From Thalia democratica (lineage: Eukaryota), in contig OZ241833.1 in the NCBI GenBank assembly GCA_965202585.1, positions 47,616,001 through 47,680,000 on the forward strand: 64,000 nt of DNA, given 5' to 3'. Positions 34,156-36,866 of the stretch are shown here, piece by piece. The first letter of the stretch is position 1. Every line of letters begins with the position of its first letter. The position numbers and the translations under genes were made by a program. The notes beneath the pieces were generated by a model. The model had not been told where the DNA came from. It ran no database searches and was given only the letters and a program-made list of their open reading frames with translations.

Positions 34156-34226
34156 TTAAAGTGAAGGGCAGTCTAGTTCACACATTGGGTCCACGTAAGA
34201 ATCGCAGGTTGAACATCTCGAGTATA
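34156..34226 (-). CDS. Secreted prepropeptide gene, exon 3 (V-YSRCSTCDSYVDPMCELDCPSL-stop)
   Basis: tttcag acceptor (a second in-frame acceptor lies 6 nt upstream), phase 1 fits, TAA at 34158-34156. Confidence 0.85.
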
Positions 34227-36095
34227 CTGAAACTGAAAAAATTATTAGATTGAAAAATATGTATATGTTGCTATGAGTTCTAAGTAATATAAATATTTAA
34301 AACCATAAGTAAATTGTTACACTTGGTGTATATAAAAACCTTTTTAAATAAAGTTGTTTACTAAATTAATTTGTGCATAAAGGTCAATAAAAGACAGATA
34401 AAGCATGACGTTTAATCGCAAAAAGATTTATTAAAACTTGGGAGATTCATTTGTTTAAAGTTTTTCTGTGATCATTTTCTAGCTTTTAAAAACGTTAACA
34501 TAACAATAGTATTATTATTATTACTAAGTGACTAAGTCTTTAACATTGTCCTACATCAAAACAATCACAAAAACTTGATTATTAATTGGTTGTTTTATAA
34601 AATTGTTACCTGCTTTTTTTTCTAAGTCGGGATAAAGGTCATGACTTAAGAATTACATAAGTACAAAACTAAAGTATTACCATACTTTAAGTATGTTGAA
34701 GTGTAATAAAAAACAGTAAAATTTAAATACTACTTGTTATAGAATTGAAAGTTTTTAGTATGTGCTAATAACCTATAGTAAACTTATTTTTATGATACTG
34801 TGTCTGTAAACGGTTTGTTTATAGCTCATAAAATAAAGCTAGTATATGCTACAAAACGTAAACTTCTGAATTTTTTAGGGTTCGACAAAATATTGATCGC
34901 TAATACTTTACCTAAAGTATACTTATTAAAATCTTTTTATCTTAAACAAATATAATAAAAAATAAAAGCATACTTTTAGTTTTTATATTCGTTTTTTAAT
35001 AAAGATTTGATTTATTTAATAAAATGCTTCAAATTTATCGCTTCGGAAAATGCTTTAACAATTGTTTAAACGGTTTAAAAACCATACATTTATAAACAAA
35101 GTTATTGAAGAGTTTCAGTACTTTAATTGTCGTACTGAAACAAAAAATGTATGTAATAAATCAAAACTTTTGCTGACTCTATATAGTTTGGTATTTAATT
35201 AATGCCATAAAAAAAAAATTAGTATACTATACCAATGGATAAAAACTTCTTTGCAGGGTAGTCGAAATAATATATATCCATTAAATTGATACAAGTTTTT
35301 AAGATTAAACATTGTAAAACAGCTATAAAGCCACTATTAATTTTGTTAGTTAGGTAAAATTACTTTAAGCAAACTAATTGATGAGCTACAATTGATAGAA
35401 ATATTCTTCAAGCAACATTTACTATTCATAAACTCTTTATAAAAATATTTTAGCGTTAAATTATTATAAGCTATCTTTAGTTATCTAACAGATACCAATT
35501 TTATGTGTTACAGAAGAATAAACTCAAATATGCTTTAAGTTATCTTGTGTATGAATCAGCTAAGACTTTTATAATATTTTTAAAACTAAAATCGGTTCCA
35601 AAACAACAGACAGAGTGTTTACTTCAAAATAGTGCCACAAAAGTATGTGTTAGAATCAATTATAAGTTAAGTGAAAGTTTTTCACTTTTTATTGAATTTT
35701 TGTTTTAACTACATATTTTTTGATAATAAAAATTAAATAATAATACTTCATTGTAAATAGAACTAATGTTTTAAATTTTTAATTACTCTTTTAATGTACT
35801 AAATATGAAGTATTTTAAATAGCTAACAATAGATTTTCAATAAGTATAATTTTTTTACAAGACTTTACATTTTACAAAACTTAAATAAAGTATTTTAAAA
35901 ATGCTTACAATTGAAAGTAATATCGGTAAAAAGTTTAACCTGATAACCTTTAATACTTTAAATTACAAAAGTTTTCTCACCTTTTATCATAAGTAGGACT
36001 TCTGTTGCAGTCATACTAATTTATTAGCTACTACTAAAACTATCATAGAATTACAACAATTTGAAATTATTATTATCATGATTTTAAATACTCAC

Positions 36096-36258
36096 CTTTA
36101 TTGTAAGTGGGACTTCTCTTGTAGTCGTACTTCCCAACTCGCTTGCAAACTCCGTACTTGATTTGCTTGTGGACATCTTCTGAGAAACATAAAGTGTCGA
36201 TGTACTGGTTCAGTGCCCTCCTCAGTTGCGCTTTTGCTTCCGGTGTTAAGTGCCAGTG
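36096..36258 (-). CDS. Secreted prepropeptide gene, exon 2 (HWHLTPEAKAQLRRALNQYIDTLCFSEDVHKQIKYGVCKRVGKYDYKRSPTYNK)
   Basis: GC-rich exon with ccaacag acceptor and GTGAGT donor; phases 0 and 1 match exons 1 and 3. Confidence 0.9.
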
Positions 36259-36782
36259 CTGTTGGTAAATAAATATTGTTTTTTTAGCTAAACTTATACT
36301 AATCACAAAGTAATTATACTAATTTGTTTTAGCTACGACTTATTTTATTTTTATTTTAACCGCTTGAACCTAACATGTTTTAGGGTTTTCGTTCATAAGT
36401 TTCCTAAATATAGCACATCTATAAGCTGTGAAAAGAAACATTGTTTTATATGAGAAACCTTCATCTGGTCTAACCCAGATTTACTTTTAATTAAAATCGC
36501 CACTCAGTCAAAAGTTATTTTTATAAATTATTAGTTAGTCCTATATATTTTTAGTAACATCTGAGAAAAAAATGAAAGCATTTATTTTAAAACCAGTTTA
36601 CGCATTTATAACAAAACGTTTAAAAGAAGTACTAAGTTTTGTTTTTAGCTATAAAATTTAAACTATTTTGTCAAACATTGTATTTTTTACTGAAACTATT
36701 TTTATTACACTAAACTACTTTTGATCTTGACAAAACAAAAAATCATTTAAAAGTTTTAAAAAATAAAGATATTAAGAATTAC

Positions 36783-36866
36783 TTTTTCATTGTTCCTTTT
36801 CTGCCAAGTCGCATCAGAAAAATTCAACAACAAAACCAAAACCAAAGCTACTGATACAAACTTCAT
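36783..36866 (-). CDS. Secreted prepropeptide gene, exon 1: signal peptide MKFVSVALVLVLLLNFSDA followed by TWQKRNNEK
   Basis: ATG at 36866, hydrophobic core, phase-0 donor GTAATT, AG acceptor 6 nt upstream of the ATG. Confidence 0.85.

Follow-up and report, generated by a model that had tools for sequence, protein, structure and literature searches.

A 64,000-nucleotide (nt) stretch of the Thalia democratica genome (NCBI GenBank assembly GCA_965202585.1, contig OZ241833.1, positions 47,616,001 to 47,680,000 of the forward strand; hereafter the window) holds a minus-strand gene of three exons that encodes a small, probably secreted precursor ending in a four-cysteine module. Both introns are GT-AG and the stop codon lies at 34156 (window coordinates, minus strand, here and below unless another sequence is named). 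The coding part of exon 1 (36783..36866; 84 nt) runs from the ATG through a predicted signal peptide and nine further residues to a phase-0 donor; the leader, which an earlier note on this DNA had also recognized, is a hydrophobic segment of 19 residues (residues 1-19; 36866-36810), as judged by eye. Intron 1 (36259..36782; 524 nt, phase 0) is followed by exon 2 (36096..36258; 163 nt), which encodes a predicted long helix, a pro-loop bounded by Cys52 (36189-36187) and Cys66 (36147-36145) with 13 residues in between, and most of a linker. After intron 2 (34233..36095; 1863 nt, phase 1), exon 3 contributes 77 coding bases together with the stop codon (34156..34232), including a conserved module that is the predicted mature peptide (residues 87-107, SRCSTCDSYVDPMCELDCPSL; 34159..34221) with cysteines 89, 92, 100 and 104. 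The cysteine pattern of the whole protein is C-x13-C-x22-C-x2-C-x7-C-x3-C, and dibasic pairs stand at residues 23, 41, 67 and 75. The 3' untranslated region (33856..34155) contains AATAAA at 33876-33871, and one contig of RNA run X1 has a loose poly(A) end (a 21-letter T run) that places the poly(A) site near 33856, 15-20 nt behind the AATAAA.

The gene is real, spliced and expressed. Contigs from two marine RNA runs, X1 and X2 (two samples of a single study), span both introns: the joint 36258/36783 is covered by one contig of X2, which contains 36783-36861 of exon 1 joined to exon 2, and the joint 34232/36096 by one contig of X1 and two of X2. Both joints read CT..AC on the plus strand. Neither was found in runs X3 and X4, which cover the introns as DNA would. 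Between 33000 and 38500, X3 and X4 contain two versions of the locus, about 10% apart in the introns and with almost only silent differences in the exons, which reflects either allelic diversity of a very high degree or a duplicate of close sequence.

The earlier note had joined three exons in phase into a product of 105 amino acids (aa); the exons were borne out and the length was not. Two of the splice combinations tested keep the cysteine frame, one using 34226 as acceptor and yielding 105 aa, the other using 34232 and yielding 107 aa, and the acceptor used in RNA is 34232, six bases upstream, which adds two residues. The 105-aa form was absent from the RNA contigs seen and is a possible minor isoform, while the 22-residue linker of the 107-aa form is shared by the relative P0003. 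Intron 2 contains a degenerate repeat of exon 2's final 35 nt that has a GT donor of its own (35979..36015) and is skipped in the RNA contigs seen, which join 36096 directly to 34232. The module is missing from the database protein P0001, whose reading frame continues past exon 2 into intron 2.

The gene belongs to an unnamed family of tunicate peptide precursors

A genome search with exon 3 returned 14 matches at eight loci, namely the window, one locus on the genomic sequence C4 and six within 150 kb on C7, and six of these eight last-exon loci carry the module as a tandem pair. Copies of exon 2 were found on C7 (four), on C4 (one) and, broken, on C2 (one). Gene models could be built for four paralogues, with introns that are GT-AG and in phases 0 and 1 as in the window gene, and the joints of the database protein P0012 are identical to those of the models. 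For two last-exon copies, C7:32912193-32912258 and C7:32934437-32934601 (minus strand), no exon 2 of their own was found; they could be orphaned copies, or the minus-strand gene at 32.948 Mb may use them as alternative last exons.

Protein searches recovered four real relatives among seven rows with P0001 as the query, three among three candidates with P0003, and 12 among 756 candidates with a profile; none of them is named and none has a Pfam domain. The searches either depend on shared words or were run with a query that lacks the module, and distant ascidian members could escape them. Three rows of the P0001 search (P0004-P0006) were dropped as repeat proteins, unrelated by inspection, and a single match in a metagenome scan (L032) was set aside as chance, being high in GC and bacterial-looking. 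Overall, these proteins form an unnamed family of tunicate peptide precursors that is real and expressed; the earlier note had seen neither the family nor the two conserved cysteines of the pro-region (52 and 66). The literature searched gave no description of the family or of a tunicate guanylin, and the supplements of tunicate peptidome and genome papers could list such peptides.

The C-terminal module is the constrained part of the precursor

As the earlier note had proposed, the product has the character of a secreted precursor of a conserved peptide, the constrained part being the C-terminal cysteine module. Over the 18 residues of S-R-C-x2-C-x7-C-x3-C, 15 positions are invariant in 17 modules from 10 precursors, and the terminal spacing recognized in the earlier note is kept in all of them, as are the Arg before the first cysteine and the Asp three residues before the third. 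Five genomic modules that lack a full gene model stand outside this set; with them, 14 of the 18 positions are invariant in 22 modules, two of the five changing the Thr. Module identity to the window copy is 83-89% (16 comparisons). The pro-helix, taken as the 17 residues before the pro-loop, is 18-53% identical (seven comparisons) and the pro-loop 13-67% (eight comparisons), with both cysteines and hydrophobic residues at positions 5, 9 and 13 persisting. P0011 has a four-residue insertion in the loop, and P0007 has Tyr in place of the first Cys. The window module differs from eight genomic modules by 6-10 silent codon changes and three amino-acid changes. Among the best-supported RNA rows (267 further rows lie outside this tally), 11 of 13 coding differences are synonymous, including all nine in exons 2 and 3, and the two nonsynonymous ones both fall in the signal peptide. 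None of the 799,840 positions translated from 40 loci outside the family showed the spacing C-x2-C-x7-C-x3-C. At the codon level, this pattern indicates strong purifying selection on the module and suggests a ligand held by its partner; most toxins and defence peptides show the opposite and usually diversify in the mature part. The toxin or defence role raised in the earlier note thus fits poorly, the mature part being the conserved one.

The four dibasic sites that the earlier note had read as cleavage sites are present in the window protein but unconserved across the family. Of 10 precursors, 3 either lack dibasic pairs or have a single one, located in the spacer that separates the modules, and P0003 alone keeps those at 67 and 75. 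In place of dibasic sites, the invariant element before the first cysteine is Ser-Arg; the residue preceding it is Lys or Arg in nine of the 17 modules and Phe, Tyr, Trp or Met in the other eight, and a Lys-Arg pair stands there in two. Past the last cysteine, family tails read Pro-Gln/Ser-x, and the window protein ends three residues after it. The linker that follows the pro-loop has 22 residues in the window gene and P0003 and 11-20 in the others.

Profile, structure and synteny searches

Pfam scans of the exons and relatives gave nothing over the curated cut-off for the family (the Pfam and PDB filters drop matches above an expect value, E, of about 0.1). Two AlphaFold2 models were of low confidence (predicted template modelling scores 0.42 and 0.39) and poor outside the pro-helices; in P0003 a helix is predicted for residues 31-70, with per-residue confidence (pLDDT) of 75-86. 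In the ESM Atlas, P0003 gave a best score of 0.81, with C17orf67/DUF4543 at 0.77-0.80, which is at lead level only, and P0011 gave nothing. An NPY-like helix (no amidated end), a natriuretic-type ring (loop poorly conserved), a vitamin-K propeptide (no conserved basic end) and a vanabin were considered by eye and dropped. A scan of 23 open frames, picked by eye from at least 468 in the window and 200 kb of its flanks, gave kelch, cullin, thyroglobulin and MAM domains and no marker known to neighbour the guanylin or endothelin genes of vertebrates.

Candidate receptor guanylyl cyclases

Cyclase-domain matches number 56 in the genome. A candidate receptor guanylyl cyclase at C1:41.44-41.45 Mb has leader, ANF_receptor-like, kinase-homology and cyclase exons, the ANF_receptor-like exons scoring E 0.005 and 0.02, below the cut-off, and an adjoining second gene (C1:41.39-41.41 Mb) has kinase-homology and cyclase exons. 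Judged by these exon matches, the candidate receptor class is present in the genome. The interval C1:41390000-41455000 holds two receptor-type guanylyl cyclase genes in tandem, with a full extracellular part in the gene at 41.44-41.45 Mb. Separately, about five cyclase genes with paired catalytic domains at C9:29320000-29600000 are probably adenylyl cyclases.

A possible guanylin-like prohormone

That the gene encodes a signalling ligand of any sort, all signalling readings taken together, is likely. Within this range we tentatively favour the precursor of a hormone whose C-terminal peptide may act guanylin-like on a receptor guanylyl cyclase, and regard true homology to guanylin as doubtful. 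The gene is not filed as guanylin because the defining feature, the cysteine gaps of the mature peptide, fails; what is proposed is that it functions in the manner of guanylin and could be distantly homologous to it. The introns of guanylin genes are probably likewise in phase 0 and then phase 1, in similar places, and the hydrophobic pattern of the pro-loop and the first helix appear to resemble those of guanylin.

In excerpts of the papers cited here, guanylin genes are described as having three exons and a precursor of 112-115 aa, with the peptide cysteines at 4, 7, 12 and 15 (PMC4045495); the peptide is the last 15 residues (PMC5570944, PMC4045495) of a 94-aa prohormone in which a body disulfide, C48-C61, folds first and templates the tail (PMC5570944). 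The prohormone is the main secreted form, undergoes no convertase processing and is probably cut in the lumen (PMC6821700). The proguanylin spacing derived from these excerpts is C-x12-C-x21-C-x2-C-x4-C-x2-C, compared with 13-22-2-7-3 in the window protein. The window gene is therefore similar to proguanylin and prouroguanylin (GUCA2A/B; PF02058; PDB 1O8R) in length (107 vs 112-115 aa), its three exons and signal peptide, its six cysteines split two plus four, the pro-loop (13 vs 12) and linker (22 vs 21), a C-terminal peptide that starts with C-x2-C, and the lack of a conserved convertase site. Pro-loop, linker length, exon count and terminal position are jointly explained by no other family considered.

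On this model, the leader would route the protein to secretion, and the helical pro-domain, stapled by Cys52-Cys66, would fold first and serve as a template for the tail's two disulfides, in the way of the proguanylin body. The module would be self-contained, because paralogues repeat it without repeating the pro-loop. A single cut just before or within Ser-Arg would then free it; the residue in front of Ser-Arg, being basic or bulky hydrophobic and rarely within a dibasic pair, makes an extracellular protease the probable agent. The peptide would finally bind a single-pass receptor guanylyl cyclase and raise cyclic GMP (cGMP), with a plausible role in the control of ion, water or mucus secretion in the gut or pharynx.

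Several results weigh against this model. The mature gaps are 2-7-3 in the family and 2-4-2 in guanylin, the family chain runs 2-10 residues past the last cysteine whereas guanylin ends at it, and the linker has only 11-13 residues in most paralogues. In both predicted models the third and fourth cysteines lie on a helix, as in endothelin, whereas the guanylin tail is described as a strand in excerpts of PMC5570944. The family also differs in its long helix, which runs straight into the first cysteine, and in the tandem modules of its paralogues, and P0007 lacks the first pro-loop cysteine. The Pfam Guanylin model (PF02058) matched 0 of 19 alignment rows and gave 0 candidates in a genome search made without a positive control; PDB sequence searches with single proteins and profiles returned chance-level rows and did not list proguanylin. 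With the low-confidence models, Foldseek gave no usable match and VIA-align reached Z 3.8 and 4.0 at best, none at Z 5, proguanylin not being among the matches listed; these fold comparisons speak neither for nor against the model. In single-exon PDB searches the receptor exons were closer to NPR-A than to GC-C (E 5e-13 vs 2.7e-10 for one and E 0.075 vs no match for another, with nothing in a further search), and in excerpts of PMC1435932 GC-C is described as a vertebrate expansion, with no mention of Ciona there. The protein searches described above gave no named ascidian relative, and the family may be confined to pelagic tunicates. The weakest step is the last, the proposed action through a receptor guanylyl cyclase.

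Comparison with other peptide systems

The earlier note had likened the module to endothelin, by an alignment to ET-3. Part of the likeness holds: two of the three gaps (7 and 3), the Arg before the first cysteine, the invariant Asp three before the third and a predicted helix over the third and fourth cysteines are common to the family and to endothelins and sarafotoxins (PF00322). Preproendothelin also carries a second, tail-less cysteine motif, and the tandem modules of the paralogues recall this endothelin-like repeat. It is nevertheless improbable that the gene encodes a diverged relation of endothelin or of the wider endothelin/GRP/CCHamide group of ligands, lacking the activating tail and acting on a related G-protein-coupled receptor (GPCR). 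The first gap is 2 instead of 1, the C-terminal hexapeptide is absent, the precursor is about half the size, the module sits at the end of the precursor and not inside it, with both copies in one exon, and the family has a predicted pro-loop disulfide. PF00322 matched 0 of 19 alignment rows, and of 46 candidates in the genome search three were matches, none at the family loci; the best of them is interrupted by a stop and resembles a chance match. In excerpts of PMC5039696, endothelin has gaps 1-7-3 with cysteines at 1, 3, 11 and 15 bonded 1-15 and 3-11, and six residues after the last cysteine; the ligand, invariably 21 aa, is cut at both ends from precursors of about 200 aa, the endothelin-converting enzyme (ECE) trimming big endothelin, and edn and ednr are reported as absent from tunicates. 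By first gap, missing tail, precursor size and Pfam model, membership of the endothelins fails and the family lies outside them, a helix-stabilizing motif common to both being possible.

The same note had pointed to CHH/ITP and prodynorphin. A core of C-x2-C...C-x3-C in a helical secreted peptide is common to the family and to eclosion hormone and CHH/ITP, which signal through cGMP, and this much of the likeness holds. In these hormones the central gap is 12 and all six cysteines lie in the mature part; the family has a central gap of 7, and neither a CHH/ITP nor an opioid-precursor family was among the 15 Pfam families listed for the 19 rows. Both CHH/ITP and the opioid-precursor cysteine domain (six cysteines, central gap at least 12) were rejected for this gap and for the four-cysteine module repeated alone. 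Insulin superfamily precursors are similar in having two plus four cysteines, and a dibasic pair follows the second cysteine in the window gene and P0003. Unlike theirs, the four-cysteine part of the family lacks an adjacent Cys-Cys pair, and paralogues repeat this part by itself, so that inter-chain bonds are not needed.

Alternative explanations

The conservation pattern is equally expected of a neuropeptide or hormone that is specific to tunicates, has no kinship with guanylin or endothelin, is released by cleavage at the invariant Arg and acts on an orphan GPCR. Tandem copies within a precursor are typical of neuropeptide genes, and the profile and fold searches gave no link to any family. 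Dibasic convertase sites are unconserved, however, an amidation Gly is absent, and simple neuropeptide precursors do not usually have a conserved helical pro-domain that carries a disulfide, and we consider such a peptide somewhat unlikely. Excerpts of PMC7002689 describe many lineage-specific peptides in Ciona, which speaks for it.

An unlikely explanation, in our assessment, is a secreted effector outside signalling (metal-binding, a mucus or tunic component, a protease inhibitor or a defence peptide) that is needed in quantity, so that genes and modules were duplicated. It would account for the eight last-exon loci, six of them in a 150-kb cluster and most with two modules, and is consistent with an acidic module rich in Cys, Asp and Met and with Pfam matches of zinc-finger type that score weakly (the best, to zf-Sec23_Sec24, has E 4.7e-05 and stays under the cut-off). 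Those matches reflect the Cys content of a predicted secreted protein, and the module hardly varies between paralogues that share about 20% identity in their pro-regions, which argues against an effector of this kind.

Neighbouring features

Four long single-exon open frames lie just upstream of the gene (40888-41655, 45797-46606, 51454-52356 and 56793-57167, all minus strand); they are paralogous, 32-41% identical to the first, with a common D-Y-L/M-x-x-S-P-x-x-R motif and acidic tails in two, and, having no Pfam match, form an unnamed tandem family. About 1200-22000 (minus strand) holds one or more multi-exon genes in which several MAM domains accompany no fewer than four thyroglobulin type-1 repeats. 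Broken nuclear copies of mitochondrial COX1 occur at C4:56844000-56945000, and in the mitochondrial COX1 of the assembly conserved glycines are read only if AGA/AGG is taken as Gly (the ascidian code), which marks the animal as a tunicate; that it turns up in marine RNA runs suggests a pelagic one. A genome search with the cellulose synthase model PF03552, made without an animal control, gave no match.

Significance

Guanylin and endothelin are thought to be vertebrate inventions. It is doubtful that the gene is the first invertebrate guanylin homologue, in which case the axis of guanylin and receptor guanylyl cyclase would predate vertebrates and the ancestral peptide would have been longer-looped; the boldest form, in which the 2-7-3 spacing is a relic of a precursor common to guanylin and endothelin, is highly improbable. 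Excerpts of the cited papers describe guanylin (PMC4045495) and endothelin (PMC5039696) only from vertebrates. Tunicates form the sister group to the vertebrates, and the origin of both hormones is directly testable by a cGMP assay because the peptide is near-invariant, expressed and easily synthesized (20 residues) and a candidate receptor lies in the same genome. If unrelated to both hormones, the family would still be one of strongly selected peptides, as yet without a name, in pelagic tunicates, and would offer a candidate ligand for the receptor guanylyl cyclases or GPCRs of these animals that are orphans.
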